Source: Planctomycetota bacterium
Lineage (GTDB): Bacteria; Planctomycetota; SZUA-567; H5-PLA8
Reading direction: 5' to 3'
Assembly (NCBI GenBank): GCA_045863855.1
Contig: BTVV01000058.1
Coordinates: 1 to 35,830 of the forward strand
Length of the DNA: 35,830 nucleotides
The notes beneath the pieces are model-generated. The model had not been told where the DNA came from, made no database searches, and saw only the letters and a list, made by a program, of their open reading frames with translations. Below are positions 4,118-28,361 of this stretch, piece after piece (positions within the stretch are counted from its first letter, which is position 1; each line of letters opens with the position of its first letter). The translations under genes were made by a program, and so were the position numbers.

Positions 4118-4936
4118 ATGAAAGTTCTGACGCCCGAGCAAGTCGAATTCTACAACGAGCACGGTTACGTGATCGTGGAAGATTTCCTCAAGCGACCCGC
4201 GCTCGACACGCTTCTAGGCGCCCTGGACCGGCTCGTGGAAGAGAAGGCGCGCGGGCTCGATCAAGACCGCGAGGGATTCAACGTCCAGCGCACTGGCGAC
4301 GAGGCGGGCAACTACGCCAACGATGGGAAACTCGTCCAGCCCGGGCTGCTGCGCAAGATTCAGGAGATCACCAAGTACAGCCCCGAGTTTGCCGCGCTGG
4401 CCGAAAGTCCGGCGCTGCTCGATGTCGTCGAAGACCTGATCGGACCGACGATCTACTACCATTCGAGCAAGATCATGTTCAAGCCGGCGCGCCACGGCAC
4501 GCCGAAGCCATGGCACCAGGACTATGCGTACTGGGCGAGCTTAAAACCCGAACAAGTCACGTGCTGGCTGGCGTTGGACGACGCCACGATCGAGAACGGC
4601 TGCATGCAGGTGATCCCCGGCAGCCACAAGTGGGGGCTGCTGAAGCACGGGCAGAAGGAACTTCAGGTCGACCGGCGCAACCTGCCGCTGGACCGCGTGA
4701 AAGTGGCCGAGATGAAGGCCGGATCGCTGCTGGCTTTCCACGTGCTGACGTTTCACTACAGCGGCGCGAACACTTCGGAGAAAGACCGCCGCTCGTTTAT
4801 CGTCGACTACGATCCGAATCGCCGGCCGGTGAAGGAAGGGTTTGCGGGCGACCGCCTGCTGCGAATCGGCGGGCGCGCTCCGACGCCGGAGCAGATCCAG
4901 GCGGAGCAGCACGCCGTGGCGGCGGTTACGGCGTAG
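4118..4936 (+). CDS. Phytanoyl-CoA dioxygenase (PhyH) family Fe(II)/2-oxoglutarate dioxygenase
   Basis: LTPEQVEFYNEHGYVIVEDF start, PWHQD (HxD), WLALDDATIENGCMQVIPGSH, distal H (FHYSGAN) and R; AAGGAG RBS upstream. Confidence 0.92.
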   Translation: MKVLTPEQVEFYNEHGYVIVEDFLKRPALDTLLGALDRLVEEKARGLDQDREGFNVQRTGDEAGNYANDGKLVQPGLLRKIQEITKYSPEFAALAESPALLDVVEDLIGPTIYYHSSKIMFKPARHGTPKPWHQDYAYWASLKPEQVTCWLALDDATIENGCMQVIPGSHKWGLLKHGQKELQVDRRNLPLDRVKVAEMKAGSLLAFHVLTFHYSGANTSEKDRRSFIVDYDPNRRPVKEGFAGDRLLRIGGRAPTPEQIQAEQHAVAAVTA

Positions 4937-6026
4937 GTGCTCCGCGCCGGGCGTCTTTCCAGCCGCGGTAGAAGCAGACCGCCAGCGTAATCAAGGTCAG
5001 GGGCACGACGTAACCGATCATCACGCGGCTGTAGGCCTGCAAGCCATCGTGCTCCATGGACTTCAGGATCAGGTAAATCGTGTAGGCCGCGTAGTAGGCC
5101 AGGAAGAGCGCGCCTTCCCAGCGCGCGATGGTGTGCCCGGTAAAGAAGATGGGGTAGCACGCCACGCAGACGGCCACCATCACCGGTATATCGAAATGGA
5201 GCGCCGGGGCGGCGACGTTGATGCCTTCGGTCGCCAAGGCCGCACTGAAGCCCATGATACAGAGCACATTGAAGATATTGCTGCCGATGGCGTTTCCGAC
5301 GGCGATATCGCGCTGCCCGCGCAACGTGGCCATCACGGAGGTCGCGACTTCCGGGAGCGAGGTGCCGGCGGCGACGACGGTCAGCGCGATGATCAGGTCG
5401 CTGACCCCCATGGCTTGGGCCATGGCCGTGGCGGAATCGACGATCCAGCGCGCGCCCAGCACCAGAAAGCCCAGCCCCACCGCGATGGAGAGCAGATCGA
5501 AGATCCAAGCGCCGCGCTTCATCGGCGGCGGAGCCGCCGCGCCGGATTCAGGCTTGGGCGTTCCGTTCTGCTGCGACTCCTTGCGGCCCAGGATCACGCT
5601 GAGGGCAACATAGCCGCCCAACAACAGGATGAAGATCAAACCTTCGGCTCGGCTCAGCGAGCCGTCGAGGCTCAGCGCCCAAAAGAGCGCGCAGACCCCG
5701 ATCATCACGGGCACGTCGATGCGGATGAGCTGCCGGTGAACCACGAGCGGCTTGAGCAGCGCCGAGAGTCCGAGGATGCAGAGCACGTTGAAGATGTTGC
5801 TGCCCACCGCGTTGCCGATGGCCAGGTCCGGCTCGCCGCCCGTCGCGGCATTCAGGCTGACGGCCAGTTCGGGAGCGCTGGTGCCGAAGGCCACGACCGT
5901 CAGGCCGATCACCAGGGACGAGACGCCGGCCGCGGCAGCGAGCCTCGACGCGCCCCGCACGAGCAGTTCCGCGCCCAGCACGAGCACGGCGATCCCGCCA
6001 AAGAAGTAGGCCAGTTGGGAAAGCAT
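4926..6026 (-). CDS. Calcium/sodium antiporter (CaCA family, YrbG-like), copy 1
   Basis: Alpha-1 GTSAPE...GSNIFN and alpha-2 GTSLPE...GSNIFN repeats; 366 aa from ATG 6026. Confidence 0.93.
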   Translation of the reverse strand: MLSQLAYFFGGIAVLVLGAELLVRGASRLAAAAGVSSLVIGLTVVAFGTSAPELAVSLNAATGGEPDLAIGNAVGSNIFNVLCILGLSALLKPLVVHRQLIRIDVPVMIGVCALFWALSLDGSLSRAEGLIFILLLGGYVALSVILGRKESQQNGTPKPESGAAAPPPMKRGAWIFDLLSIAVGLGFLVLGARWIVDSATAMAQAMGVSDLIIALTVVAAGTSLPEVATSVMATLRGQRDIAVGNAIGSNIFNVLCIMGFSAALATEGINVAAPALHFDIPVMVAVCVACYPIFFTGHTIARWEGALFLAYYAAYTIYLILKSMEHDGLQAYSRVMIGYVVPLTLITLAVCFYRGWKDARRGAPTP

Positions 6027-6081
6027 GACGCGAAGCGTTGTAGACCGCGGGCGCGCGGATGGCCAGAGCAAGCGAACGAAA

Positions 6082-7185
6082 TCAGACCGATTCCGGGTGG
6101 CGCGCGCGCCAAGCGCGGAAGAAGCAGACGGCCAGCGTGATCGTCGTCAGCGGCGCGGCGAACGCGAGCATGACGAAACTGAAGCCAGGCAGCGCCGCGT
6201 GCTGCGTGGAAAGCAAGATCAAGTACCCCGTATACGCCGCGTAGTAGGCCAGGAAGACCGCGCCTTCCCAGCGCGCGATCAGGTGCCCCGTGAAGAAGAT
6301 GGGAAAGCACGCCACGGCCACCGCCATCATCACCGGAATATCGAAGTTTCGCGCCGCCGACGCGACCTCGACGCCCTGCGGCGAAAGCGCGCAACTTAAT
6401 CCCAGGATGCAGAGCAAATTGAAAATGTTGCTGCCGATCACGTTGCCTACCGCGATGTCGCGCTGCCCGCGGTAGGTGGCCATCACCGAAGTCGCCACCT
6501 CGGGCAGCGACGTGCCGGCGGCGACAATGGTGAGCGCCACGACCAGATCGCTGATGCCTAATGCCTTCGCCATGGACGTCGCCGAGGTCACCAGCCATTG
6601 TGCGCCGAGGATCAGCAGCCCCAGCCCGGCCAGGATGCACAGGCAGTCTATCAGCCAGGAACTCTTCGCGGGCGCGGCCGGCTTCGCGTCGGCGGCGGGA
6701 TCGGCCGGGGCTTCCGCTGCGCCGTTGGCCGCGCCATCCTTGCGGCCTAAGTGAATGCACAGGCCGATGTACGCCAGCAGGAGCAGAGAAAGAAGGATTC
6801 CTTCGATTCGGGAGAGGGTGCCGTTGAGACTTAGGCCCCAAGTCAATCCGGTGACGGCGATCATCACCGGCACGTCGACGCGAACCAACTGCTTATGGAC
6901 CACCAGCGGCGCCACCAGGGCCGAGAGCCCCAGAATGAAGAGCACGTTGAAGATGTTGCTGCCGACCACATTCCCCAGCGCCAAGTTGGGTTGGCCGCTC
7001 AAACTGGCTTTCAGGCTGACGGCCAGTTCCGGCGCGCTGGTACCGAAGGCAACGACGGTAAGCCCCACGACCAGGGCCGAGACGCCCGCCGCCGAGGCCA
7101 GCCGCGAAGCGCCGCGCACGAGCAACTCGGCGCCCACCACCAGCACCGCCAGACCGCCGACGAAATAGAACGCGTTGAGGAGCAT
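6082..7185 (-). CDS. Calcium/sodium antiporter (CaCA family, YrbG-like), copy 2
   Basis: Same GTSAPE/GTSLPE/GSNIFN alpha repeats; 367 aa; clear full-length paralogue of copy 1. Confidence 0.93.
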   Translation of the reverse strand: MLLNAFYFVGGLAVLVVGAELLVRGASRLASAAGVSALVVGLTVVAFGTSAPELAVSLKASLSGQPNLALGNVVGSNIFNVLFILGLSALVAPLVVHKQLVRVDVPVMIAVTGLTWGLSLNGTLSRIEGILLSLLLLAYIGLCIHLGRKDGAANGAAEAPADPAADAKPAAPAKSSWLIDCLCILAGLGLLILGAQWLVTSATSMAKALGISDLVVALTIVAAGTSLPEVATSVMATYRGQRDIAVGNVIGSNIFNLLCILGLSCALSPQGVEVASAARNFDIPVMMAVAVACFPIFFTGHLIARWEGAVFLAYYAAYTGYLILLSTQHAALPGFSFVMLAFAAPLTTITLAVCFFRAWRARHPESV

Positions 7186-7267
7186 GAGCAATCGAACCCG
7201 GATGGGAGCGCCATTAGATAGCCCGCGTTCGGATCGGCCAGTGCAGATTCGGAGGCTTGCAATGCAA

Positions 7268-7320: not shown

Positions 7321-8247
7321 TTAGTAATTCAAGCCGGCTGCGGCCATGGCCATCTTGCGTTTTTCCTGCGGCGCCGTGCGGTGCCACGGGATGCCTTTGG
7401 AGAGTTCCAGCGCTTCGGTCCAAAGCTGGCACCAGCGCTCGTGGCTGGTCAGGACCGAATCGGGCTGTTTTTCACTGTGCGTGACGAAGCAGGGATGGAA
7501 GGGCCGCCCGCTGGGCTGGTGCGTGGGCTGGTAGCGCAGATCGAGGCTCCAGCGAACGCCGTTTGTCATGTTGTCGGTGCTGCGGTGCGGCGTGAAGCGG
7601 CTCATGAAGATGATACCCCCGCGCGGAATCTCGGCGCGCACGGGCTTGGTGGCGGGCATCAGTTCGGGTTTGATGCACGTCCCGCCTTCGGCCATGTGTT
7701 CCAGGTACCCGGTCTTCTGCACCCCGGAAATCACTTCCATGCAGCCGTTGGCGGCAGTGGCGTTCACGAGCGGGAGCCACGAAGTGACGATCTCGCTGGC
7801 GTCGGCTTCTTCCCAAGTGACGGCGGCATCCTGGTGCCACGGCACGTTCATTTTGGCGCCTTCGGAGAGCTTGGCCGCCGGCGGCTTAGCGCGCAGGTGC
7901 TGGATCGGATTGCAGGAAATCTCGGGACCGATCAGGCCGCGCAGCGCCTGCATCAGACGCGGGTTGCGCAGGAAATGGAAGAGTTCCGGAATCCGCGAGT
8001 GCATGATATCCAGACCGCTGCCGATCTCGGGGCATTCGTCGTAGATCCGCGCGAAACGGTGTTCGAAGTCTTCTTTCTCGTAGAGCTGGGTGATCTTGCC
8101 TTCGGCCAGCAGCTTGCGCGCCTTCGCATCGATCCAGGCCGTGATACCGGCTTCCACGGGAGCCAGGTCTTCGTTGCGAAAGAGCCCCTCCACGATGAGG
8201 AATCCGTTCTCCTTAAAGGAATCGAGTTGGGCGGGCGAAAGCTTCAT
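7321..8247 (-). CDS. Phytanoyl-CoA dioxygenase (PhyH) family Fe(II)/2-oxoglutarate dioxygenase
   Basis: LSPAQLDSFKENGFLIVEGL, VPWHQDAA, WLPLVNATAANGCMEV, TPHRS..N....VRWSLDLRY. Confidence 0.92.
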   Translation of the reverse strand: MKLSPAQLDSFKENGFLIVEGLFRNEDLAPVEAGITAWIDAKARKLLAEGKITQLYEKEDFEHRFARIYDECPEIGSGLDIMHSRIPELFHFLRNPRLMQALRGLIGPEISCNPIQHLRAKPPAAKLSEGAKMNVPWHQDAAVTWEEADASEIVTSWLPLVNATAANGCMEVISGVQKTGYLEHMAEGGTCIKPELMPATKPVRAEIPRGGIIFMSRFTPHRSTDNMTNGVRWSLDLRYQPTHQPSGRPFHPCFVTHSEKQPDSVLTSHERWCQLWTEALELSKGIPWHRTAPQEKRKMAMAAAGLNY

Positions 8248-8342
8248 GGCGGGCGTCTCCGGGCCGGTTGGGATGAATCTTCTCCCTAACCGATACCCGG
8301 TGCAGTCCCCGGCCGCCTTGCTTGGGGATGCAAAAGAATTGT

Positions 8343-8933
8343 CTAATCCTGCACGGCCCGCCGCCGCGCCGGGAGCTCCTTCTGCTTTCGTTCGGCGTGC
8401 CGGTAGTGCCGGTTGCGTTCGGCGACCCGCTTGGCGGGGTCCTTGCCCCGGGCCAGCGCCACCAGATCCCGCGTCATCAGGCTGCGGTAGCCCTTGGGCC
8501 CGACCACCACATGGTCGTGGAGCGGGCAGCCCAGACTGGAGCCGGCCTGAGCGACCAGTTCGGTCAGATCGCGGTCCGCGCGGCTCAACCGCAACTGCCC
8601 CGAAGGATGGTTATGGACCAGGAAAACCCCATGGGCTCCGGCGCGCAGCGGAGGTATGAAGATCTCGCCGACCCGGCAGAAGACATGGTCGCTGGCGCCC
8701 ACCGCCAGGAGATCCCAGCGCAGCAAGCGCAATTGGCAGTCCACACTGCCCAGGATCAGGACCTCGCGTTCCAGCGCGGCCAGTCCGCGGAAGAGATCCG
8801 CCACATCCGAGGCGCTGCGCACGACCGGGCAACGGTCCAGCCCCAGCGACTGGCGCAAATCTTCGCCCAGCATGGGCTCCATCCGCGGCGGCTGGTAGTA
8901 TATCGGATTGGAGGAATGGGTCGATTCTGGCAT
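8343..8933 (-). CDS. Stand-alone JAB-domain protein (RadC-like), 196 aa
   Basis: EREVL...VHNHPSGQLRLSRADRDLT...LHDHVVVG carries the RadC/JAB E..HxH..S..D motif; lacks the N-terminal HhH region of chromosomal RadC; GGGAG RBS 7 nt before ATG 8933. Confidence 0.88.
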   Translation of the reverse strand: MPESTHSSNPIYYQPPRMEPMLGEDLRQSLGLDRCPVVRSASDVADLFRGLAALEREVLILGSVDCQLRLLRWDLLAVGASDHVFCRVGEIFIPPLRAGAHGVFLVHNHPSGQLRLSRADRDLTELVAQAGSSLGCPLHDHVVVGPKGYRSLMTRDLVALARGKDPAKRVAERNRHYRHAERKQKELPARRRAVQD

Positions 8934-8973
8934 GCGCGCGCTCCCGGTTGCCGCACTACTTCCATTTGGGAAA

Positions 8974-8988
8974 GCAAGCCACGATCCA
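8974..8988 (-). promoter_or_regulatory. Putative sigma54 (-24/-12) promoter for the JAB gene
   Basis: Minus strand TGGATCGTGGCTTGC has exact GG-N10-GC spacing with TTGC at -12; predicted +1 near 8962, about 30 nt before the start codon. Confidence 0.65.
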
Positions 8989-9071
8989 TTCGAATAAAAC
9001 GAGTGCATTCGTGTAAAGAGTTACGCAGACTCAGTTCCGTGAGTAAGAGTCCGAATCTCGACCGGCGGCGG

Positions 9072-9089
9072 TTGCACAAGGTCGTGCAA
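9072..9089. promoter_or_regulatory. Putative enhancer (UAS) for a sigma54 activator
   Basis: Palindrome TTGCAC-AAGGTC-GTGCAA about 110-130 bp upstream of the predicted +1; NtrC-like TGCA half-sites; extra TGCA copies at 9099 and 9107. Confidence 0.55.
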
Positions 9090-9130
9090 TACTCGCTGTG
9101 CAGTTGTGCAGGCAGGGGACGAGTTGACGA

Positions 9131-10510
9131 ATGGCTGAATTGCCGCCGAACGCCGCTGGTGCGCTGATTCTGATCGCCGACGACAGCACGCACGTGCGCG
9201 AGGATCTGGCCGATCTATTGACGGCGGCCGGGCACCGCTGCCTGCAAGCCGCGACAGCCGCTCAGACCATCGGCATGTCGGCCGACGCGCGGCCGGATCT
9301 GGTGCTGCTGGACCTGGTATTTCCGGATGCCAGCGACCTGACTCCGCTGCGCAGGCTCCTGGAACTGCCCGGCGCTCCGGACGTGATCCTGCTGAGCGGG
9401 CAGACGGGGGCGGTTCCGATTATCGTCGAATCGATCAAGCTTGGGGCCTTCGATTTCGTGCCCAAGCCTTACGAACCGGCCGAGTTACTCAACCGGATCG
9501 CGCGGGCCTGGGAGGCGCGCAAGCTGCGCGCCGAGCGGACGATCTTGCTGCAGGAACGCGACGCGCGCTCAGGGCTGGAGCGGCTGGTGGGTTCGAGCGC
9601 GCCGATGCAGCGGTTGCGCGAAGCGCTGCGCAAACTGGCCGCGCGCGACGGGAACGTACTGCTCTGCGGCGAAAGCGGCACAGGCAAAGAGTTGGCCGCC
9701 CGCGCCTTGCATGTCCTGGGTCCGCGCCGGGCGCGGCCGTTCGTGGCCGTCAATTGCGCGGCCGTTCCCGAATCGCTGACCGAGTCGATCCTCTTTGGCC
9801 ACCGTAAAGGCGCGTTCACCGGCGCGACGCAGGCCACGCCTGGCAAGTTCGAGACGGCCGGCGACGGCACGCTGTTTCTGGACGAGATCGGGGACATGCC
9901 GCTGCGGCAGCAGGCGGCGCTGTTGCGCGTGCTGGAGAATCGTACCTTCACTCCGGTGGGGGATACGACCGACCGCGTCTGCCGGGCGCGGATTGTGCTG
10001 GCCACCAACTTGGATTTGAGCGCGGCCGTCGCGGCCGGCCGACTGCGTGAGGATCTGTATTACCGGATCCGGGTAACCGCGCTGGAACTCCCCCCGCTGC
10101 GCGCGCGCTTGGAAGATCTGCCCGAACTCTGCACGCACCTGATTGCGGAACTGGCCCTAGATATAGGTCTCCCGCCGCCGGCTTTGCAGGCCGAAGCGCT
10201 TGACGTGATGCGGCGCTACGACTGGCCGGGCAACGTCCGGGAACTCAAGAATGCTTTGGAAGGTTCGCTGATGCTGCTGGACGCGCAGGCGACGGAACTG
10301 CGCATCGCAGACCTGCCCCCCGAGTTGCTCGCGGCACGCGACGGCGCGGGCCTGGGGCTGTCGCCGGCCGAACGCCTCGAGAAAGCGGATCTGCTCCGTG
10401 CACTGCGCGAGCATCGCGGCAATCAGTCCCAGGTGGCCCAAGCGCTGGGCATTCATCGCAATACCGTGCGCGCCCGCATCCGCTATTACGGAATAACGGA
10501 CTGGAGCTGA
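9131..10510 (+). CDS. Sigma54-dependent response regulator (NtrC family: REC-AAA+-Fis HTH)
   Basis: Receiver DD...LLDL...KP; Walker A GESGTGKE; intact GAFTGA; FLDEIG; WPGNVREL; C-terminal GNQSQVAQALGIHRNTV HTH. Confidence 0.95.
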   Translation: MAELPPNAAGALILIADDSTHVREDLADLLTAAGHRCLQAATAAQTIGMSADARPDLVLLDLVFPDASDLTPLRRLLELPGAPDVILLSGQTGAVPIIVESIKLGAFDFVPKPYEPAELLNRIARAWEARKLRAERTILLQERDARSGLERLVGSSAPMQRLREALRKLAARDGNVLLCGESGTGKELAARALHVLGPRRARPFVAVNCAAVPESLTESILFGHRKGAFTGATQATPGKFETAGDGTLFLDEIGDMPLRQQAALLRVLENRTFTPVGDTTDRVCRARIVLATNLDLSAAVAAGRLREDLYYRIRVTALELPPLRARLEDLPELCTHLIAELALDIGLPPPALQAEALDVMRRYDWPGNVRELKNALEGSLMLLDAQATELRIADLPPELLAARDGAGLGLSPAERLEKADLLRALREHRGNQSQVAQALGIHRNTVRARIRYYGITDWS

Positions 10511-13041
10511 CTGGCGTTCGGCTGAGGCAGCCGCAGCACGAATTCCGCGCCGCCTTCCGCCGCGTCTGCGGCGTCGATCGAACCGCCGTGCAACGTTGCG
10601 ATCTTGCGGCACAGAGCGAGACCTAAGCCGGTTCCCTTGCCGTCTTTGGTCGAATGGAACGGTTCGAACAGGAACGCGCGCTGAGCGGCGGGAATACCGG
10701 GGCCGTTGTCCGCGACGCGCAGCATCCAGGCGCCGGCCTCCCGGGTTGCCCGCAGCGTCACGCGCGCGCCGGTCCGCCGGGTGGTGGCGTCGAACGCGTT
10801 CTGGAGCAGGTTCCGGACCACTTGCTCCAGCCAGGCCGGGTCGCACGAGCAGCGCTCGGCCTCCGGCGCCACTTCGACCGAGAGTTCCGCTCCGCGCGCT
10901 TCGAAGTCCCTCGCGATCTCCAGGAGCAGGCTGCGCGCCGCCACCGGGCGCTTGCGCAGGGTCAGCGGGCGCGCGTAGTTTCGCAGCGCTTCGAGCATGC
11001 GATCCATCGCATCCAGGCGTTCGGGAATGAGGCGCGCGGCGTGCTGGAATTCAGGATGGTCGAGGTTCAGTTGCTCGAGCTTTCCGGCCTGGTGGCGGAT
11101 GGGCTGCATCAAGTTGGCGAGTTCGTGGTTGATGGCGGAGACGAACTGGCCCAGCCGCGCCAGGTTCTCCTGGCGCTGCAAGTGCACTTCGAGATCCTTG
11201 TACGCGGTCAGGTCCTGCAGCAGTACGAGGAAGAGGGCATCGTCCTCGAAGCCGTCGAGGCCGCGCATGCTCCAGAGCGCGAAGCGCCGTTCGGGCTGAG
11301 TCCACTGCAGCGGTACGGTTTCCCGCCGGATGCCGTCGCGCAAGCCCCCGGCCACGGCCTCGGCCAGCACCGGACATGCGCGAAGCCACTCTTCGAGCCG
11401 CCCGGGCGGCGGACCTTCGGTCGCGCCGGCCAGCGCGAGGGCCGCCGGATTGATCAGCACCACGCCGCCGTCCCTGTGCAGCACCGCGACGCCGGTGCTC
11501 AGGCCGTCCAAGGTCAGCCGCGTCAGTTGTTCCAAGCTGGCGATGTGCGCGTACTGGCGTGCGTTGCGCAGCGCGACCGAAGTGTTGTCGGCCACGGTGC
11601 GCGCGAAGCGCAGATCCTCGGAGTCGTAGAGTTCGTCGGCGCGCTGCGGTGGAACCAGCGCCACGGCGAGCGTTTCTTCCTGGTGGCGCACCGGAACCAG
11701 CAGGAAGGCCCCGGATTCGCTCCAAGCCACACCGCGCGCCGGCGCGTCCGGTCGGCTTTGCGGTTCCGGAAGCGCCTGGACTTCGCCGGGCGGGTGGGCC
11801 GCGAGCCAAGCGGCCCACGCTTCGCGTTCGCCGTCCTGGAAATCCGGCGCCGGACTCTCGCCGTGAGCGGACTGCAGGGTCCATGTTCCGTTGGCGCGCG
11901 GTAGAAAGACCCAGACGCGCCGGGCGTTCAATCCGTCGCGCAGGACCGCGGCCAGTTCGTGGAGCACCTCGTCGAGGCGCATGGCCGAAGCCATGCGTCG
12001 GGAGTGAATCGCCAGCAGCGCCTCGCGGTCGGCGCGCACACGAAAGAAGTAGCGGTCGATGCGGCGCTGCAGGGCGCTCAGGAGCGGTGCGTAGAGCAGT
12101 CCGGCCACGGTGACAAAGCCCACCGCGGGAAGCAGATTGGCCAGCACGCCGTCCGGATGCAGGAAACGGGACGTTGCGAAGAGCAGCAGACCGTACGCCG
12201 CGCCCAACAACATGCAGACCGCGCCGTAGGCCAGTCCGCGGCGGATCACGATTCCGAAATCGTAGACTTGGTGCACCAGTACGGCGTAGCCGAGGATCAG
12301 GACGTGCGCGACGTAAAACGATCCGCCCAGCGTAGGCAGGCGGATGCCCATGCTGATCAGGAAATGAAGCCAGCACGACGACCACATCGGCACCGCGCCG
12401 GCGGTGAAGTAAAAGACCTGCCAGCGGCGCTGCCGGGGTCTGACCGTGAAGAGGGTGTATACCAGCAGGAAGAACGCGGCGGTCAGGACGCTGGAGATGT
12501 ACCCGAAAAAGTGCGGGTAGAAGCCCTTCATCGCGGGCATCCACTTGCCGTTCCGGTAGATCGCCTGAGGACACATACTGCCTGCGAGCTGGAGCACGAG
12601 AAATACGCATCCGCCCGCCCATGCCATCCGCTCGATCCAGCGCCAGGCGGGGTGCTCGGTTTGCGTGAAGCGAATCGCGAAGCGCAGCAGGGCGGGGGCG
12701 ACGAAAATGCCACCGAATCCCAGCAGGCGGATGGCGAGTACAACGGACTCCGCGGTGGCGGCCGGATCGGGTCCGGGCCGGATCGTGAACATGGCCCAGA
12801 CCAGGCCGAGGTACACGATGACGAAGAACAGGTAGAGCTGAAAGCTGCCGTGCGCGGGCCCGCGGTGCTCCTGGCGGCGCGCGAGCAGAAGCATGCCCAA
12901 CGCGGCGTAAAACGCCACCAGCCACCCGACCGAACTAGGCGCAACGCCGTAAGCCAGCGGCAAGGTGCCCGCGGCAAGCGCCACGCACCACAGCACGGCC
13001 GCATGCCGCAAGACCGGATGCCAAGTATCCCGGGTGGTCAT
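10486..13041 (-). CDS. Membrane sensor histidine kinase (multi-TM N-terminus, GAF, PAS-like, HisKA, HATPase)
   Basis: About 330 aa hydrophobic N-terminus; GAF-like LLVPVRHQEETLAV...YDSEDLRFARTVA; H-box INHELAN; N-box NLLQNAFDA; DNGPGI; LFEPFHSTK; GTGLGL. Confidence 0.93.
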   Translation of the reverse strand: MTTRDTWHPVLRHAAVLWCVALAAGTLPLAYGVAPSSVGWLVAFYAALGMLLLARRQEHRGPAHGSFQLYLFFVIVYLGLVWAMFTIRPGPDPAATAESVVLAIRLLGFGGIFVAPALLRFAIRFTQTEHPAWRWIERMAWAGGCVFLVLQLAGSMCPQAIYRNGKWMPAMKGFYPHFFGYISSVLTAAFFLLVYTLFTVRPRQRRWQVFYFTAGAVPMWSSCWLHFLISMGIRLPTLGGSFYVAHVLILGYAVLVHQVYDFGIVIRRGLAYGAVCMLLGAAYGLLLFATSRFLHPDGVLANLLPAVGFVTVAGLLYAPLLSALQRRIDRYFFRVRADREALLAIHSRRMASAMRLDEVLHELAAVLRDGLNARRVWVFLPRANGTWTLQSAHGESPAPDFQDGEREAWAAWLAAHPPGEVQALPEPQSRPDAPARGVAWSESGAFLLVPVRHQEETLAVALVPPQRADELYDSEDLRFARTVADNTSVALRNARQYAHIASLEQLTRLTLDGLSTGVAVLHRDGGVVLINPAALALAGATEGPPPGRLEEWLRACPVLAEAVAGGLRDGIRRETVPLQWTQPERRFALWSMRGLDGFEDDALFLVLLQDLTAYKDLEVHLQRQENLARLGQFVSAINHELANLMQPIRHQAGKLEQLNLDHPEFQHAARLIPERLDAMDRMLEALRNYARPLTLRKRPVAARSLLLEIARDFEARGAELSVEVAPEAERCSCDPAWLEQVVRNLLQNAFDATTRRTGARVTLRATREAGAWMLRVADNGPGIPAAQRAFLFEPFHSTKDGKGTGLGLALCRKIATLHGGSIDAADAAEGGAEFVLRLPQPNASQLQSVIP

Positions 13042-13093
13042 ACGTTGAGCAGGTTAGAGGCCGGCGAATATGAAACAAGCCGGGATCGGCAGG

Positions 13094-14260
13094 CTATTCC
13101 GACAGCGCCACCTGCGCCGCGAAGCGGCAGGCCAGCGCGTATTCGTCCAGGTCGATCCACTCGTGCGGCGTATGCACCTGGCGCTGGCCGGTTCCGTAAG
13201 TGACGGTGGGGATGCCGTGCGCGTTCAGCCAGTTCGAATCCATCCCGCCGTTGTTGTCCACGCAGGCCATCTCGATGGAGAGTTCGCGTGCGGCCCGCAA
13301 AGCCAACTGCACCGCAGGTTCGCCGTCCGGAAGCTTAAACGATTCGTACGTGGGCGCCGGGCCGAAGGCGACTTCGGCGCACTGTCCGGCTTGGTTGCGC
13401 GTCCGGGCCGCCGCGGCTCGAAACGCATCCTGCCAGCGCGCGACGATGCGGTCGCGGAAAGCGCGGTCGTGGCTGCGCGCTTCGGCCAGGATGCTCAAAT
13501 GCGGCATCACGACGTTGCTGCCCTGCCCGCCGTTCAGGATGCCCAAGTTCGCGCTGCCTTTGCCTTCGGGCTTCGCGATCGCGCCGTGCCAGCCGTCGTC
13601 GGCCAGCGCTTGCAGCGCCCGCGCCATCGCCACCGCCGCCGAGACGCCGTCTTCGGGATGCGCGCCGCTGTGCGCTTCGACGCCTTTGATCTCGACGGTG
13701 AAGCGCTGCGTCCCGATCACCGCCGTGACCAGTTCCTGGATTCGTCCGCCGTCGGCGTTAAAGCCCAGCGCGGGCAGCGCCGGTCCCAATTTTCCTAAGT
13801 CCAATCCGCGCGCGCCGACCAGACCGACTTCTTCCTGAATCAGGAAGACCAGCGTCGTGGGTGCGTGCCGGCCTTTACGTTCGGCCAGCGCCCGCGCCAC
13901 GGCGAGCACGATGCCGCAGCCGCAACGGTTATCGCCGCCCAGCGCGCGGCCCGGCGCGGCGTTGACCGCCTTGCGGCCTTCGACGCGCGGCTGGCAGCCC
14001 ACCGCGTTGGGAATCGTATCCATGTGGCAGGTAAAGAGCCGCCGCGCGCCGCGGCCGTGCCCGTCGAGGCGCACGATCAGGTTGCCCGTCTCGCCGCCGT
14101 ATTCGCTCTGATCCTGCGCCCGGTCGAAGCTTATGGCCGAATCGGGAATACCGGCTTCGCGCAGGAAAGCCACGATGCGCTGCGCGACTTTTCCTTCGCG
14201 GCCGGGCGGGCCTTCGATGGGAAGCAGTTCGAGCAACTGGCGTTCGGCGAGTTCGGACAT
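13094..14260 (-). CDS. M20 family metallopeptidase (peptidase T-like)
   Basis: HMDT, LGGDNR, QEEVGL, AHSG.HPEDGVSA, GGMDSN and VHT metal-binding/catalytic motifs. Confidence 0.88.
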   Translation of the reverse strand: MSELAERQLLELLPIEGPPGREGKVAQRIVAFLREAGIPDSAISFDRAQDQSEYGGETGNLIVRLDGHGRGARRLFTCHMDTIPNAVGCQPRVEGRKAVNAAPGRALGGDNRCGCGIVLAVARALAERKGRHAPTTLVFLIQEEVGLVGARGLDLGKLGPALPALGFNADGGRIQELVTAVIGTQRFTVEIKGVEAHSGAHPEDGVSAAVAMARALQALADDGWHGAIAKPEGKGSANLGILNGGQGSNVVMPHLSILAEARSHDRAFRDRIVARWQDAFRAAAARTRNQAGQCAEVAFGPAPTYESFKLPDGEPAVQLALRAARELSIEMACVDNNGGMDSNWLNAHGIPTVTYGTGQRQVHTPHEWIDLDEYALACRFAAQVALSE

Positions 14261-14290
14261 GGATCGTTCCTTCCAGAGCCGCGGGCGGGC

Positions 14291-15562
14291 TCAGGCCAGC
14301 GTTTTCTCAAGAGCCGACGCGACCCGGTCGCATTCGGCGGAGGTGATCGAGAGCGGCGGTTGTAGGCGCAGGACGTTTCCGAATGGGCCGCCCGAACCGA
14401 CCAGGATGCCCTGCTCGCGCAGCGACGCGCGCAGGCTCTTGGTCTCGGCGGCGGCCGGCTCCTTGGATTTCTTATCCTTCACCAGTTCGAGGCCGATCAT
14501 CAGGCCCTTGCCGCGCACGTCGCCGATCAGCTTGCTCTTTTCGGCCAGCGGGCGCAGCCGCGACATCAGTTCCTCGCCGCGCGCGGCGGCGTTCTCGACG
14601 AGCTTCTCTTCCTGGAGCACTTCGATGTTCGCCACGGCCGCGGCGCAGGAGACGGGGTTTCCGCCGAAGGTGCTGAGGTGGTCGCCGGGCTTCATCGCGT
14701 CGCAGACCGGTTCCCGGGCGATGAATGCGCCCAGCGGGAAGCCGTTGGCGATGCCCTTGGCCATGGCCAGGATATCCGGCTCCACGCCGTAGTGTTCGAT
14801 GGCGAAGAAGCGCCCCGTGCGCCCGAAGCCGGTCTGAACTTCGTCGCAGATGAAGAGTGCACCGTCCTCCTTGAGGATGGAGACGGCTGTCTTAAAGTAT
14901 CCGTCGGGCGGAACCAGGATGCCGCCCTCGCCCAGCAGCGGTTCGGCCAGGAACGCGGCCACGTCGCCGCCGGTCTGCTGGCGCAGCACGTCTTTCATCG
15001 CGTGCGCGCAGGCCAGGTCGCAGGTGCCCGGTTCCAGCTTCAGCGGGCAGCGGTAGCAGTACGGCGTGGGCGCGAAGGCCACGCCCGAGAGGTACGGGCC
15101 GGCGCCCTGCTTGCGGCCGCGGTTGCCGGTGACCGAAAGCGTCCCCACCGTGCGCCCATGGAAGCTGTAGCCCAAGGCGACCAGCTCCTTGCGCCCCGTC
15201 GCCTGCTTGGCCAAGCGCATTGCGCCTTCGATCGCCTCGGCGCCGGAGTTCCCGAAGAAGCTCTTCTTCAAGCCGCCGGGAGTGATCCCGGCCAGCTTCT
15301 CGGCGAGCCGCCCCACCGCGGGCACCTGGTAGACGTACGAGCAGCAGTGGACCAGTTCCTCCATCTGCTTGCGCGCCGCCTCGATGATCTTCGGGTGCCC
15401 GTGCCCCGCGTTGACCACCGAGATGCCCGCGAAGCAGTCGAGATACTCTTTGCCGTCGGCCGCCTTCAGCGTGCGCCCCTTGCCGCTCACGATGGCGACC
15501 GGTTCGGCCGACAACGCGGCCACCGGCATGAGATATTCGGAGTATTGTTGCGCCGTGTTCAT
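14291..15562 (-). CDS. Class III PLP-dependent aminotransferase (omega-amino acid / beta-alanine type)
   Basis: NSGAEA, SFHGRT, DEVQTGFGRTG, MAKGIANGFPLG (PLP Lys), STFGGNPVSCAAA. Confidence 0.93.
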   Translation of the reverse strand: MNTAQQYSEYLMPVAALSAEPVAIVSGKGRTLKAADGKEYLDCFAGISVVNAGHGHPKIIEAARKQMEELVHCCSYVYQVPAVGRLAEKLAGITPGGLKKSFFGNSGAEAIEGAMRLAKQATGRKELVALGYSFHGRTVGTLSVTGNRGRKQGAGPYLSGVAFAPTPYCYRCPLKLEPGTCDLACAHAMKDVLRQQTGGDVAAFLAEPLLGEGGILVPPDGYFKTAVSILKEDGALFICDEVQTGFGRTGRFFAIEHYGVEPDILAMAKGIANGFPLGAFIAREPVCDAMKPGDHLSTFGGNPVSCAAAVANIEVLQEEKLVENAAARGEELMSRLRPLAEKSKLIGDVRGKGLMIGLELVKDKKSKEPAAAETKSLRASLREQGILVGSGGPFGNVLRLQPPLSITSAECDRVASALEKTLA

Positions 15563-15615
15563 CCTTCCGTCCTTCCTTGCTCAAATCCCAATTCCAAAAC
15601 CGGCCATCCCCTTGC

Positions 15616-17133
15616 CTACACCCAGCCCTCATGCGGCGGCACCGCGCCAAACCAGCGCTCGGTAATCACCTTCTTGCGCGTGTAGAAGTGGATCGCGTCG
15701 GGCCCGTAAACGTGCGTGTCGCCGAAGAGCGACTTCTTCCAGCCGCCGAAACTGAAGCTCGCCATCGGCGCCGGCACGCCCAGGTTGAGGCCCAACATTC
15801 CGCACTGGATGCCCGCGCGGAAGGTGCGCGCCGCCGCGCCCGACTGGGTAAAGATCGAGGCCGAATTGCCGAAGCGGCTGCGGTTGGCGATGTCGATCGC
15901 TTCCTCGAGATCCTTCGCGCGCAGGACCGCCACCACCGGGCCGAAAATCTCTTCGGCCACCAGCGGCGATTCGAGGTCCGCGACGTCGAAGACCGTTGCG
16001 CCGAGGTAATGCCCGTTGGGCCGCGTGGCGGCCTTTGCACCGCGTCCGTCGAGGAGCAGCTTGGCGCCGGCTTTTTCGCCCGCGGCGATGGCTTGTTCGA
16101 CTTTCTGCTTATGCGCCGCGCTGTGCAGCGGGCCCATCCCGGCCTGTTCGTCGAAGCCGTCGCCAAGGCGGATCGTGCGCGCGCCGGCCACGAAGCCTTC
16201 GATCACGCGGTCCTGTTGCGCCTTGTCGCCGATGGCGACCACGACACTTCCGGCCAGGCAGCGCTGCCCCGCGCAGCCGAAGCAGCTTCCCACCAGCGCC
16301 GGCACGCTCTGCTCCAGATTCGCGTCGGGCATGACGAGCAGAAAGTTCTTGCCGCCGCCCAAGGCCTGCACGCGCTGCCCGTTCGCCGCGCACTGGCTGT
16401 AAATCTGCTGCGCGACGGGCGTCGAGCCCACGAACGTGACGGCTTTGACGGACGGGTTGGCGAGGAGCCGCTGCGTCACGTCCGCTCCGCCGTGGAGCAC
16501 ATTGACCACGCCCTTGGGCAAGCCGGCTTCGTTGAAGAGCTGCGCCAGTCGCGTTCCCGTCAGCGGGGCCTTCTCGGCGGGCTTGAGGATGTACGTATTC
16601 CCACAGGCCACCGCGAGCGGCATCGTCCAGAGCGGGATCATGGCCGGGAAATTGAACGGTGGAATCCCGACGCAGACGCCCAGCGGCTCGCGCACGCAGG
16701 AGGCATCCACCAGCGACGCGACGTTGGGCAGCGTCTCGCCCATCAGCAGCGAGGGAATGCCGCAGGCGAACTCGACGACGTCGATGCCGCGGCGCACGTC
16801 GCCTTTGGCTTCGCTAAGCAGCTTGCCGTTCTCGCGGACGATCAGGCGCGCCAGTTCGACATAGTTCGCTTCGAGGAGTTCCCTGAAACGAAAGAGCACG
16901 CGCGCGCGGTCGGGCGCCGGAGTGCCGGCCCAGCCGCGAAAGGCGCGCTGCGCCGAGGCGCAAGCCGCGGCCACCTGAGCGGGCGTGGCCTCACGGACCG
17001 CGGCGACGAGCTCGCCGGGGTCCGCCGGGTTGCGAATCTCGCGGACGATCTCCCCTTCGCCGGGAACGCTCGCGCCGTCGATCCATAGAGCGGCTTCGGC
17101 GCTGCGGGGCGGGTGAGCGGTTGCGGTGGTCAT
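15616..17133 (-). CDS. mmsA: CoA-acylating (methyl)malonate-semialdehyde dehydrogenase
   Basis: PFNFPAMIPLW, LKPAEKAP, FVGSTPVA, QALGGGKN, GCAGQRCLAGS (catalytic Cys), EEIFGPV; signature of the MMSDH subgroup. Confidence 0.9.
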   Translation of the reverse strand: MTTATAHPPRSAEAALWIDGASVPGEGEIVREIRNPADPGELVAAVREATPAQVAAACASAQRAFRGWAGTPAPDRARVLFRFRELLEANYVELARLIVRENGKLLSEAKGDVRRGIDVVEFACGIPSLLMGETLPNVASLVDASCVREPLGVCVGIPPFNFPAMIPLWTMPLAVACGNTYILKPAEKAPLTGTRLAQLFNEAGLPKGVVNVLHGGADVTQRLLANPSVKAVTFVGSTPVAQQIYSQCAANGQRVQALGGGKNFLLVMPDANLEQSVPALVGSCFGCAGQRCLAGSVVVAIGDKAQQDRVIEGFVAGARTIRLGDGFDEQAGMGPLHSAAHKQKVEQAIAAGEKAGAKLLLDGRGAKAATRPNGHYLGATVFDVADLESPLVAEEIFGPVVAVLRAKDLEEAIDIANRSRFGNSASIFTQSGAAARTFRAGIQCGMLGLNLGVPAPMASFSFGGWKKSLFGDTHVYGPDAIHFYTRKKVITERWFGAVPPHEGWV

Positions 17134-17150
17134 GGCGGACGGTCCTTTTC

Positions 17151-17711
17151 TCAGAAGCTCGGCGGCGTATTGACCGAGACGGATTCGACCTCGCCGCGCC
17201 CGATGTTGCGGAAGCGATGCGGCCGGCGGCTGTCGAAGTAATACGCGTCGCCCGGGCCCAGCACGTGGACCTCGTCTTCGACGGTCAATTCCAACTGTCC
17301 TTTGAGCACCACGCCGGCCTCCTCGGCCTCGTGGCGGTACAAGTCCGGACCCGTATCCGCGCCGGGTTCGTAGCGCTCCACGAGCAACTGCAACGCGCGA
17401 CCCGGCCGGTTCGGTGCGACTTCGCGGTACGAGAGTCCCTTGTGTTGGCCGGAGATCTCGACCAGCTCGGCTTTCCGGTACACGATCTTGGCCGGGGTCG
17501 GGGCCGCTCCGTCACTGAAAAATTCGCCTAGCGTGGTGCCCAAGCTGTCGAGCAGCGTCTTGAGCTTGCCGACGGAGATCGAGTTGCGTCCGTTTTCGAC
17601 GGCCGAAATGAAGCTCAGCGCGATGCCCGTATCCCGCGCCAGCGCGCGCAACGAACGCTTGCGGCGTGTGCGCAGATCCCGCAGGCGGCTTCCCAGTTGT
17701 TTTTCGAGCAT
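17151..17711 (-). CDS. XRE-HTH + cupin transcriptional regulator (PuuR-like)
   Basis: LGSRLRDLR...SLRALARDTGIALSFISAVENGRNS HTH; cupin HEAEEAGVVLKGQLELTV...GPGDAYYFDSRRPHRFRN; ends TPPSF. Confidence 0.9.
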   Translation of the reverse strand: MLEKQLGSRLRDLRTRRKRSLRALARDTGIALSFISAVENGRNSISVGKLKTLLDSLGTTLGEFFSDGAAPTPAKIVYRKAELVEISGQHKGLSYREVAPNRPGRALQLLVERYEPGADTGPDLYRHEAEEAGVVLKGQLELTVEDEVHVLGPGDAYYFDSRRPHRFRNIGRGEVESVSVNTPPSF

Positions 17712-21495: not shown

Positions 21496-21804
21496 ATGGC
21501 ATCACCCGCCAACCCGACGGATCCTCGCAAAGATGACAATGGTTTCGGACTGGAGCACCTGGATCTGCAAGTGCTGACTGTTGCTCCTGAAGCGCTTGCT
21601 CTCATCTCCGTGGAAACTTGCCGCGAACTGGACGTAGTACCCGTTGAGTTGTTTGACCAAGTGTTGACGTTGGCGATTCCGAATCTGGAAGTGTTGATGC
21701 AACTTAGGCCGGAGCACTTTACCTTTTCTGTTCAGATTGAGCCCGTTCGGGCGTCCCGTGAGTCCATTCGCTTAACCATCGAGCGCCTCTATGGACACCC
21801 CTAA
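21496..21804 (+). CDS. Stand-alone GspE/PilB N-terminal (T2SSE_N-type) domain protein, 102 aa
   Basis: LDLQVLTVAPEALALISVETCRELDVVPVELFDQVLTLAIPN...IEPVRASRESIRLTIERLYG aligns by eye with the matching segments of both downstream ATPases; GAGGT RBS. Confidence 0.75.
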   Translation: MASPANPTDPRKDDNGFGLEHLDLQVLTVAPEALALISVETCRELDVVPVELFDQVLTLAIPNLEVLMQLRPEHFTFSVQIEPVRASRESIRLTIERLYGHP

Positions 21805-22046
21805 CCACACGCGTCCGCACTGCAATGCACCAGTGCATTTTTGGGTGCACTTTTCAACCGTAATTCGGGCCTGCTGCGGCTCTCCCGAAATTCAAATAAG
21901 GTTGCCGCAACTCCGCTCCAATCGTATAGTTGCCAGTCGTTGGATGAGCCGTGACGCAGGTTACCGCGCGACGTGCTGAACGTGGCGCGCCGAGCGTTTA
22001 AGCGGTTTTGTAAACGTGCGTTACGCACGGGGGGACGCCAGACCAC

Positions 22047-23771
22047 ATGAGCGATCAACGGCGTTTCATCGGCGAGATACTGATGGACATGGGCTGCGTC
22101 TCGCAGGAAGACATCGACCGCGCCCTCGAAATGCAGATGAACGGCGACGCGCGCAAGATCGGCGAGATCTTCGTCGCCGAGGAACTCTGTTCCGTTTCGG
22201 ACATCACCGCCGCGCTGGCCGAGCAGTTCGGGATGGAGATGGTCGACCTCGCCGGGTTGGAGATTCCCGAAAACGTTACGGCGATGGTGCCCGAGCAGGT
22301 CTGCCGCGACAACCACGTGATGCCCATCGATATGTTCGATGGCGTTCTGACGCTGGCGATCTCCGATCCGCTGGACCTCCAAAGCCTCGACAACATCCGC
22401 TTCATGATCAACTGCCAGGTCGAGCCCGTGCTGTCGCCGCGCGACGCCATCGATACCGCCATTGACACCTACTACACCGACCGTTCCAACAAGCTCCGCG
22501 CCGAAATCGACGACCTTTCGCAGTCGCTCTCGCAGGGCGACATCGAGGTGATCGATACCGAGGCCAAGCGCGAGGAAGCCGAGCGCTGGGACGCCGAAGA
22601 CGACGACGCTCCGATCATCCGCCTCGTGCATCTGCTGATCCAGGAAGCGGTGAAGAACCGGGCCAGCGACATTCACATCGAACCGATGCTCGACCGCCTG
22701 CGCGTGCGCTACCGCATCGACGGCGTCTGCTACGAAGTCGACGCGCCGCAGAAGCGCCTGCAAGGCGCGGTGATCAGCCGCATCAAAATCATGGCCGACC
22801 TGCACGTCGAAGAGAAGCGCCGGCCGCAGGACGGCAAGATCCCGCTTAAGATGCTCGGCCGCGACCTCGACTTGCGCATTTCGTCGCTGCCCGCTTCGCA
22901 CGGCGAGTCGGTGGTGATGCGTATTCTGGACAAGAAGTCGATCAGCTTCGGTCTCGAAGAATTGGGCTTTTACGAAAGCGACATGAAGATTTTCCGCGGC
23001 CTGATTCGCAAGCCCAACGGGATCATGCTCATCACCGGCCCGACCGGTTCCGGTAAAACCACTACGCTCTATTCGGCGCTCAACGAACTGAACACCGCCG
23101 ACCGCAAGATCATCACCGTCGAAAACCCGGTGGAATACACCATCGGCGGGATCAACCAGTGCCAGGTCAACGCCGACGCGGGCATGACCTTCCAGAAGGC
23201 GCTGCGCGCGATGCTGCGCCAGGCGCCGAACGTGATTCTGGTCGGTGAAATCCGCGACAGCGAAACCGCCGAAATTGCCGTTCAGGCCGCGCTGACCGGG
23301 CACTTGGTATTCAGCACGCTGCACACCAACGACGCGCCCAGCTCCCTTTCGCGCCTGATCGACATGGGCATGGCGCCCTTCCTCGTGGCCAGTTCGATTC
23401 AGGCCGTGCAGGCGCAGCGCCTGATCCGAATGATCTGTCCGAACTGCAAGCAGCCGACCGAAGAAGACCCGCAGCGCCTGCGTTCGGTGGGCCTGCGTGA
23501 CGAACAGTTCCAGGGCAAGCAGCTTTACCGCGGCGCCGGCTGCCAGAACTGCAACGGCGTCGGCTTCCGCGGACGCAAAGGCATCTACGAAATCATGGTG
23601 ATGAACGGACGCCTCCGCGACATGTGCTTCAACAAAGCGACCACCGACGCGATCCGCGAACAGGCCTGCCGCGACGGCATGCATACCCTGCTCGACGACG
23701 GCTTGCGCAAGGTCTTGGACGGCTGGACGACGCTCGACGAGGTGATGGGCGAAGCCAAGCAGTACACGTAA
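22047..23771 (+). CDS. pilB: Type IV pilus/T2SS assembly ATPase (PilB/GspE family), copy 1
   Basis: MshEN-like N-terminus, ASDIHIEP, RRPQDG, GPTGSGKTT, LRQAPNVILVGEIRD, TGHLVFSTLHTN, CxxC...CxxC Zn site. Confidence 0.92.
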   Translation: MSDQRRFIGEILMDMGCVSQEDIDRALEMQMNGDARKIGEIFVAEELCSVSDITAALAEQFGMEMVDLAGLEIPENVTAMVPEQVCRDNHVMPIDMFDGVLTLAISDPLDLQSLDNIRFMINCQVEPVLSPRDAIDTAIDTYYTDRSNKLRAEIDDLSQSLSQGDIEVIDTEAKREEAERWDAEDDDAPIIRLVHLLIQEAVKNRASDIHIEPMLDRLRVRYRIDGVCYEVDAPQKRLQGAVISRIKIMADLHVEEKRRPQDGKIPLKMLGRDLDLRISSLPASHGESVVMRILDKKSISFGLEELGFYESDMKIFRGLIRKPNGIMLITGPTGSGKTTTLYSALNELNTADRKIITVENPVEYTIGGINQCQVNADAGMTFQKALRAMLRQAPNVILVGEIRDSETAEIAVQAALTGHLVFSTLHTNDAPSSLSRLIDMGMAPFLVASSIQAVQAQRLIRMICPNCKQPTEEDPQRLRSVGLRDEQFQGKQLYRGAGCQNCNGVGFRGRKGIYEIMVMNGRLRDMCFNKATTDAIREQACRDGMHTLLDDGLRKVLDGWTTLDEVMGEAKQYT

Positions 23772-23813
23772 CGCCGCAACCGGACAACGAGCACGACCTC
23801 ACGGGGAACCGAA

Positions 23814-25052: not shown

Positions 25053-25082
25053 GCGGCTCTGACATAGAAGCGAGGTTTCGCA

Positions 25083-26843: not shown

Positions 26844-26986
26844 GCGGGCGGCTAACCTGTTGGTCCGAAAAGAGTTGAATTGGGGTTTCGGAAACGGCGC
26901 CGCTTTTCCGATCCCAAGAAGCGGTGAAGAACCCAAGGCGCCTTGGCGTCCTGTTGGCGATTTCCAGCCTTCAAGGAGCGGCAACC

Positions 26987-28210: not shown

Positions 28211-28361
28211 ATCGCGCGCGCTCAGCCTCGCCTTGCTCGCCGCCTGGGCGCTCTGGTTGGCCGTCCTGATCGTGTTGGGCCTGCACGCCTGGGGCCGGCC
28301 GCGCTCGGCCGACGCGCCGGTCGTGCCCCTCGAACCGCCGCCCGAAACGAATCGGCCGTGA
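28194..28361 (+). CDS. Small single-TM hypothetical protein (about 55 aa)
   Basis: Hydrophobic ALSLALLAAWALWLAVLIVLGLHAW plus Pro-rich tail; fills the gap, overlapping the upstream stop and sharing GTGA with the downstream start. Confidence 0.55.
   Translation: MTANAESRALSLALLAAWALWLAVLIVLGLHAWGRPRSADAPVVPLEPPPETNRP

Follow-up and report, generated by a model that had tools for sequence, protein, structure and literature searches.

A stand-alone gene for a RadC-type JAB protein forms, with a divergent sigma54 activator and a sensor kinase, a real and conserved regulatory unit in an uncultured Planctomycetota bacterium (genome G000; 6.9 Mb, 93.9% complete), and this unit is wider than first described. 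The locus was analysed in a contig of 35,830 bp (the window), for which a first-pass annotation made from the sequence alone had proposed a three-gene module in which a membrane-perceived signal induces the JAB protein; that interpretation is, as a whole, partly supported. The anatomy of the genes, their conserved linkage, the motifs and their geometry, the presence of rpoN and the coupling of ketosynthase and kinase genes in relatives are directly established. The overall reading put forward here, in which JAB is switched by the sensor pair through sigma54, the input is a lipid-like ketosynthase signal and JAB is likely a zinc enzyme acting on nucleic acid, has about an even chance of being right. 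The features of the locus are as follows.

7321..8247, minus strand: PhyH-family dioxygenase gene (PF05721), 95 bp downstream of JAB
8343..8933, minus strand: stand-alone RadC-type JAB gene, 196 amino acids (PF04002; family-restricted clade)
8941..8945, minus strand: ribosome-binding site GGGAG, 7 nt ahead of the JAB ATG at 8933
8962, minus strand: predicted sigma54 transcription start, deduced from the -12 C at 8974
8973..8988, minus strand: sigma54-type -24/-12 box TGGATCG-N4-TTGCT, score 13 of 15
8989..9019, no strand: AT-rich stretch between enhancer and promoter, a possible DNA-bending site judging from its sequence
9072..9089, no strand: palindrome TTGCAC-N6-GTGCAA, predicted activator site, centre 118 bp upstream of the predicted start
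9097..9110, no strand: two more TGCACA half-sites beside the palindrome, seen in the sequence
9131..10510, plus strand: REC-AAA-Fis sigma54 activator gene, 459 amino acids, of the HRNT recognition-helix clade (domain scan and tree)
10486..13041, minus strand: HisKA_7TM-like/GAF/PAS/histidine kinase gene, 851 amino acids, convergent with the activator gene

Control elements and regulators at the window locus

The gap between the JAB and activator genes is 197 bp long (8934-9130). The palindrome, GG-N10-GC element, ribosome-binding site and JAB ATG that the first-pass annotation had placed there were confirmed, and all the sequence features it listed agree base for base in position and go beyond chance. 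The palindrome reads TTGCACAAGGTCGTGCAA (9072-9089) and the promoter element TGGATCGTGGCTTGC (8988-8974 on the minus strand, GG-N10-GC). A bare GG-N10-GC has little meaning on its own, given its frequency (21 per kb in G000; the minus strand of the gap region has three). The full -24/-12 site scores 13 of 15, a value reached by only 0.4% of 3105 upstream regions. The palindrome is the sole TGCAC-N6/7-GTGCA in the window (0.08 expected; present in 8 of 100 shuffles) and lies 42 bp from the activator ATG. Judged by the consensus in the passages of PMC12316311 that describe it, the JAB gene has the marks of a sigma54 promoter, namely GG-N10-GC, a predicted enhancer 80-150 bp upstream and rpoN, which was found in the G000 genome. 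No sigma70-like site was found in the gap.

Canonical TGGC-N7-TTGC boxes occurred upstream of G000 genes 35 times, with 18 expected and 12-25 at other spacings, which makes sigma54 promoters appear commonplace in this organism. TGCAC-N6-GTGCA was not enriched (9 sites in the genome, about 5 expected), and a large regulon is therefore not indicated. Among 3803 G000 upstream regions, only that of the JAB gene has a perfect palindrome followed by a box at a distance of 95-150 nt; five other genes had a 1-mismatch palindrome and a loose box. Half-site arrays like the window TGCACA pair also occur in L028, L063 and L226. T-tracts stand at a similar place to the AT-rich stretch in several homologues, and the window stretch is without a shown integration host factor consensus.

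RNA evidence came from assembled contigs without a DNA control, with 4 of 12 RNA runs compared. Two studies gave contigs about 95% like the window (7397-8940 and 7427-8947), each bridging JAB and PhyH, and the next RNA pieces in those studies started at 8973 and 8980; a third study gave a piece identical to the window at 8762-8938. The contig ends at 8938, 8940 and 8947 thus lie 15-24 nt inside the predicted start, the break between pieces spans 8962, and these ends are a weak hint of a start there, since contigs cannot show starts or levels. The bridging contigs are likewise no proof of one transcript. The JAB-PhyH gene order is the same in G001 and G002, the linkage was found in this genus only, and the two genes are probably co-transcribed in it. 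The longest JAB open reading frame would begin at 9008; the start was placed at 8933 because the gene caller, the ribosome-binding site and the RNA contig ends favour it. The kinase and activator genes were covered only by short RNA pieces. An operon at 13094-17711 (HTH-cupin regulator, aldehyde dehydrogenase, class III aminotransferase and M20 peptidase) runs into the kinase gene across a 53 bp gap, and its RNA contigs stop at 13034-13049.

The intact GAFTGA loop and phospho-acceptor Asp described for the activator were found at 227-232 and D61, and together with the Walker A/B motifs and the Fis helix-turn-helix (HTH) they mark a Group I sigma54 activator. The protein fell below the cut-off in all 25 NCBIfam families listed (NtrC 362 vs 559, AtoC 331 vs 714, PrsR 328 vs 503) and likewise below that of the ZraR equivalog. 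It belongs to a clade of 12 rows with a common HRNT recognition helix (SH-like approximate likelihood ratio test, SH-aLRT, 100), which holds two of the 20 G000 activators in the tree, the window copy and one on contig C38. The kinase gene, described as abutting the activator gene, overlaps its 3' end by 25 bp and encodes H639, about eight hydrophobic segments, a GAF domain, a weak PAS domain and a HATPase domain. HisKA_7TM (PF16927) gave no Pfam hit in the window kinase at E 0.01 (Atlas feature score 0.95), reached E 2e-4 in the orthologue at L025 and was above the cut-off in L248 and L253. Convergent kinase-activator pairs were found in the window, G003, L067, L069, G001 C2, G002 C1, G005 C39 and G000 C38. 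The kinase very probably phosphorylates the window activator. The pair on G000 C38 (21644-25614; L223) comes from the same two clades; the 19 kb retrieved there contain neither JAB nor ketosynthase nor palindrome, and this second pair could cross-talk to the window JAB promoter.

Recurrence of linkage and motifs in relatives

Fourteen distinct JAB loci were compared, with near-identical copies (L023, L062, L029, L030, L032 and L033) merged and L068 left out for want of upstream DNA; L067 also has none, so palindrome counts use 13 JAB upstream regions. An activator of the clade or a 7TM kinase stood no more than about 2 kb from JAB at nine of the 14 loci. At six of them a clade activator was divergent from JAB (the window, L025, L028, L063, L065 and L069), at three an activator or kinase adjoined JAB in another arrangement (L024, L031 and L067), and neither partner was near JAB at the remaining five (L026, L027, L034, L064 and L066). 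For comparison, an activator lay within 1 kb upstream of ordinary radC genes at 1 of 120 loci, and that one was convergent.

Palindromes were counted as TGCAC-N6/7-GTGCA with at most one mismatch. They were present upstream of 10 of 13 JAB genes (9 of 12 without the window), compared with 39 of 1368 genome regions and 2 of 134 ordinary radC genes, and before none of seven clade activators without a divergent JAB. At loci that lack the activator (L024, L026 and L027), JAB has kept the palindrome. Measured from the predicted start, palindrome centres fell between -107 and -142, and the window, G001 and G003 share the value -118. An unseeded Gibbs sampler recovered it in eight of the 13 regions; a second, promoter-like motif in about five of 13 was weak (score 124 vs 115.6-117.5 in three random sets). 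The -24/-12 box, scored out of 15 and counted as positive at 11 or above, was present at 9 of 14 JAB loci at the correct spacing and at 0, 0, 1 and 0 loci at four slid spacings, the background rate of such scores being 11.5%. A test of helical phasing on 10 hand-picked sites (R 0.71, p about 0.006 at 10.5 bp) was post hoc and is given no weight. The recurrence in related genomes that had been named as the check on the locus was therefore found, as linkage, palindrome and box all recur in divergent relatives. The activator quite probably binds TGCAC-N6-GTGCA and drives JAB through sigma54.

The linkage within the proposed three-gene module stands, but its boundaries do not: 5 of 14 JAB loci are without either partner and the PhyH gene is probably co-transcribed. 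Nor does the two-component pair belong to JAB as its own, since the same clade adjoins ketosynthase operons and an XRE operon with the same control elements, and activators and kinases of the clade also occur without any JAB gene.

Several further features were seen at these loci. G010 has three cassette copies about 94% identical with different flanks (L028-L033 and L227), representing duplication or mixed strains (7% contamination); the gene order is JAB, activator, two small genes, metal-less JAB, kinase, a 368 amino acid protein and ketosynthase. A protein of 80-90 amino acids with no Pfam or NCBIfam family lies directly 3' of the clade activator in six cassettes (L029:9898-10134, L031:3457-3708, L063:5040-5280, L039:8302-8571, L224:3850-4100 and L226:9520-9790); it is duplicated in G010 and was not found in G000. 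At L024 (5105-7611) in G001 C1, decay or an assembly error has left no activator and, upstream of JAB, a kinase in two parts (residues 8-547 and 545-840). A protein combining an excisionase-type HTH_17 with a receiver is repeatedly found close to JAB or the cassette (L063:357-953, L069:487-1122 and L027:6695-7315) and also occurs at G000 C9:19782 and C177:6117. Downstream of JAB at L063 (8350-13952), an ArdC-N protein and a helicase-REase fusion suggest an island.

The JAB protein and its clade

RadC proteins are found across most bacterial lineages, and to our knowledge they have no settled function; we take E. coli YicR and short prophage forms to be members of this RadC/UPF0758 family. The window JAB matches PF04002 with 87.8 bits (cut-off 22.1). 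The metal motif (E57, H107, H109, S117 and D120) is intact and the C-terminal tail basic (net +8 across the last 40 residues), both as first annotated. Matches to the full-length RadC equivalogs fell short (NF000642, 80.9 vs 180 bits; TIGR00608, 72.6 vs 133.85) and started only at profile position 89-95, the N-terminal HhH/UPF0758 part being absent. G000 carries a second, full-length radC on contig C59, distinct from the window gene. A profile of the window clade matched 13 database proteins at 155-334 bits, with ordinary RadC at 102 bits or less, and in a quick tree the clade formed 22 of 47 rows (SH-aLRT 99). Among 20 genomes of the order it was confined to family f1 (G000, G001, G002, G003, G005, G007 and G010), and a pattern-limited scan of the genome collection returned no clade member above 44% identity outside Planctomycetota metagenome-assembled genomes.

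A C-terminal CxxC...CxxC zinc ribbon is present in 11 of the 22 clade members. The window copy has none, and a basic two-helix tail stands where the ribbon would be; its structural model has a pLDDT of 84, with lower confidence for the two C-terminal helices. The model of a ribbon-bearing member, P0001 (pLDDT 85.7), resembled RadC 2qlc (TM 0.83, Z 17.5), with the next-best fold, and JAMM folds in general, at a Z of 8.0 or less; this comparison barely probed the ribbon. A PDB sequence search gave 2qlc as sole match and TFIIS-type zinc ribbons at E 0.25-0.9. The clade therefore shares with RadC (PF04002, 2qlc) the JAB domain, the E-HxH-S-D motif and the fold of P0001, and differs from it in standing apart in the tree, lacking the HhH N-terminus, scoring below NF000642 and TIGR00608, bearing a zinc ribbon or basic tail, and having a sigma54-type promoter with its own enhancer. 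RadC is predicted to act on nucleic acid and to have no ubiquitin-tail groove, according to the passages on the family in PMC3239186 and PMC5512222. No Ubl/E1/E2-type family was found among the neighbour proteins scanned (27 + 38, part of all neighbours). That JAB acts on nucleic acid has a little less than an even chance.

Comparison with G002 gave 26 synonymous and eight non-synonymous codon changes, which indicates that the window JAB is under purifying selection. The view that short RadC forms travel as mobile-element cargo finds no sign at the window locus, although relatives' cassettes lie in islands: the flanks are syntenic in G001 and G002, GC is 0.64-0.69 without a dip, and no close plasmid match was found among 72,556 records. 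Beyond the PhyH gene, positions 4118-7191 encode another PhyH protein and a tandem pair of Na/Ca exchangers that are 66% identical. Three large minus-strand open reading frames at 21801-29104 (627, 1061 and 750 amino acids) had no Pfam match and lower GC (about 0.60-0.65), and some of them may be shadow frames.

Ketosynthase cassettes and the signal read by the kinase

In G001 C2, G002 C1, G004 and G010 the kinase is the last gene of an operon opened by an extra FabF-like ketosynthase, with either a methyltransferase and IorAB or the 368 amino acid unknown protein next in order. L063 has a ketosynthase, a methyltransferase and AsnB beside the activator and JAB, and tailoring enzymes differ between loci (methyltransferase, ICMT, B12-rSAM, IorAB and AsnB). 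In 401 genomes of the phylum, searched for the kinase with two candidates scored per genome, the five next-best ketosynthase matches all lay within about 6 kb of an independently found full-length kinase. Seven such kinase loci outside the family were retrieved, not counting a partial match (G203), with a ketosynthase at all seven and an activator at six. Cassette ketosynthases clustered away from housekeeping FabF (10 rows, SH-aLRT 99). Boxes scoring 11 or more were found in 8 of 11 regions upstream of ketosynthase or XRE genes, compared with 2, 2, 4 and 2 at slid spacings, and several of these regions also carry the palindrome, which suggests feedback on the synthase. The cassettes in G001 and G002 lie in islands with integrase-like genes, umuDC, SRAP and restriction-like genes (identified from ORF starts, not family scans); G000 holds pieces of the G002 island flanks and not the cassette.

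The ketosynthase profile was also run over 301 genomes of another phylum, where it matched ordinary FabF only (225 of 301) and was uninformative. In three family ketosynthases Leu replaces the first catalytic His, and in L248 Gln replaces the second; the Cys is invariant (L039, L224, L226 and L248), and the condensation chemistry is possibly altered. In G004, a TGCAC array and a GG-N10-GC box precede a small open reading frame and an XRE gene (L226:1530-2330); G001 and G002 have a related XRE gene that points away from the ketosynthase in divergent orientation.

These observations are consistent with a scheme in which the kinase would sense a lipid-like signal made by a ketosynthase of the type beside such kinases elsewhere and phosphorylate the activator at D61. 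The phosphorylated activator would bind the -118 palindrome and open the sigma54 promoter for JAB and probably PhyH, and JAB would act as a zinc-dependent enzyme on nucleic acid. The case for a ketosynthase-derived diffusible signal as the kinase input is evenly balanced. Because the G000 assembly is without a cassette ketosynthase, the window locus would be an orphan receiver, taking its signal from elsewhere or from neighbours. Extended to a cell-to-cell system of FabF-like synthase, 7TM-GAF-PAS receptor, sigma54 activator for TGCAC-N6/7-GTGCA and positive feedback on the operon of the synthase, with a dedicated zinc-ribbon RadC clade of one Planctomycetota family as output and the window as a synthase-less eavesdropper, the scheme becomes tentative, and we rate it below an even chance.

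Several points weigh against this scheme. On the promoter side, 5 of 14 JAB boxes score below 11, L025, L031, L063 and L064 have CG or AG for GG, the spacer in L065 is one base longer, and the -12 GC is missing in most family ketosynthase boxes. The search span of 14-70 nt, the start codons and the motif were fixed after the sites were known, and counts from related JAB loci are not independent, as these share ancestry. On the side of linkage, G007 (93% complete) keeps palindrome and box and no clade activator or kinase was found in it, at L249 perfect palindromes precede an activator that has no JAB, and JAB is at none of the seven kinase loci outside the family. Several family kinases have no ketosynthase nearby, and none of the cassette clade was found in G000, where the best match (39%) was a housekeeping FabF. 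Finally, the HxH metal histidines are missing in 5 of 22 clade proteins, from which catalysis appears not to be needed in every member.

The same wiring might instead serve a kinase that reads membrane state, with ketosynthase and methyltransferases remodelling lipids and JAB taking part in an envelope-stress response. Partner methylases of ICMT/PEMT type and HpnR-like B12 radical-SAM type act on lipids, the passages on HisKA_7TM in the literature on the domain (PMC5847659) give no ligand, and a synthase-less kinase such as that of the window would require no outside producer. However, tailoring sets vary by locus, including IorAB and AsnB, the sensor domains of family kinase paralogues are only 35-40% identical and cassettes lie in islands, so private signals fit better than housekeeping lipid control, and we consider control by membrane state improbable.

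It is similarly unlikely that, with regulation as proposed, JAB is a feedback part that acts on the circuit by binding or hydrolysing its signal or one of its proteins, perhaps together with the PhyH dioxygenase. In favour of such a part, metal-less JAB copies are retained in at least two lineages and three of these copies have an intact zinc ribbon, the G010 cassette holds one intact and one metal-less JAB, JAB is without the HhH DNA-binding part, and JAB and PhyH share RNA contigs. However, HxH is kept in 17 of 22, the fold is nearest RadC and not JAMM peptidases (Z 17.5 vs 8.0), a C-terminal ribbon or basic helices would both fit nucleic-acid binding, and the seven outside cassettes function without JAB. 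The least probable alternative makes JAB a passenger read by a housekeeping sigma factor, with the palindrome only the activator's autoregulatory operator and the -24/-12 match incidental; the palindrome's closeness to the activator ATG (42 bp), the L249 sites, which indicate that autoregulation also occurs, and several boxes off consensus speak for it, but palindromes and boxes stay with JAB after activator loss, all seven clade activators that lack a divergent JAB are without them, the control for spacing is specific and the gap has no sigma70-like site.

The scheme of a sensor pair switching JAB through sigma54 has parallels in known systems. The NtrC site is TGCAC-N7-GTGCA, which the window palindrome resembles. 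As in NtrC, ZraSR, AtoSC and PrsK/PrsR, the window has REC-AAA-Fis architecture, GAFTGA, an enhancer about 120 bp upstream and a -24/-12 box; it differs from NtrB/NtrC-type systems in an activator below equivalog cut-offs, a 7TM-GAF-PAS sensor and a RadC-like target gene. The receptor of the Photorhabdus PpyS signal is a LuxR solo and not a kinase. PpyS is a pyrone synthase, a ketosynthase making a quorum signal (PMC4578411, in its account of the enzyme), whereas the cassette ketosynthase scores best as FabF-like. The fatty-acid methyl ester quorum sensing of Ralstonia PhcB/PhcS (PMC8578825) is matched in relatives by a lipid-type synthase and methyltransferase adjoining a membrane kinase, but the cassettes combine a FabF-like ketosynthase with a HisKA_7TM sensor and sigma54 activator, and no LysR regulator was seen. 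In Vibrio, CqsA/CqsS or LuxN feeds the sigma54 activator LuxO through LuxU (PMC8895600, in the sections on this relay), a flow from membrane kinase to sigma54 activator also proposed for the window, where the kinase is not a hybrid and no Hpt was seen. In contrast to PhcB/PhcS and CqsA/CqsS, no synthase lies beside the window kinase and none was found in G000; synthases are present in G001, G002, G004 and G010.

In the open-access full-text literature, no paper was found on a sigma54-controlled radC or on a ketosynthase/7TM-kinase/sigma54 cassette, in agreement with the first-pass annotation, to which no such described system was known; searches for the JAB gene itself turned up nothing similar, and the main text of a 2025 sigma54 regulon survey (PMC12316311) does not mention RadC. 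Limits are an uncultured host, a small clade and regulatory logic that is textbook in itself. The locus adds an operator motif, promoters and an output gene to the ketosynthase/7TM-kinase/sigma54 cassette. With its inducible sigma54 promoter and defined operator, and with natural members both intact and metal-less, the JAB clade gives a direct route to the timing and role of RadC, and the RadC family would gain a defined trigger if the sensor pair switches JAB. In several other bacteria radC is competence-induced yet dispensable for transformation (PMC6237807, in its discussion of the gene). If the cell-to-cell scheme is true, the window eavesdropper would induce a RadC nucleic-acid enzyme on its neighbours' signals, paralleling that induction of radC in competence.

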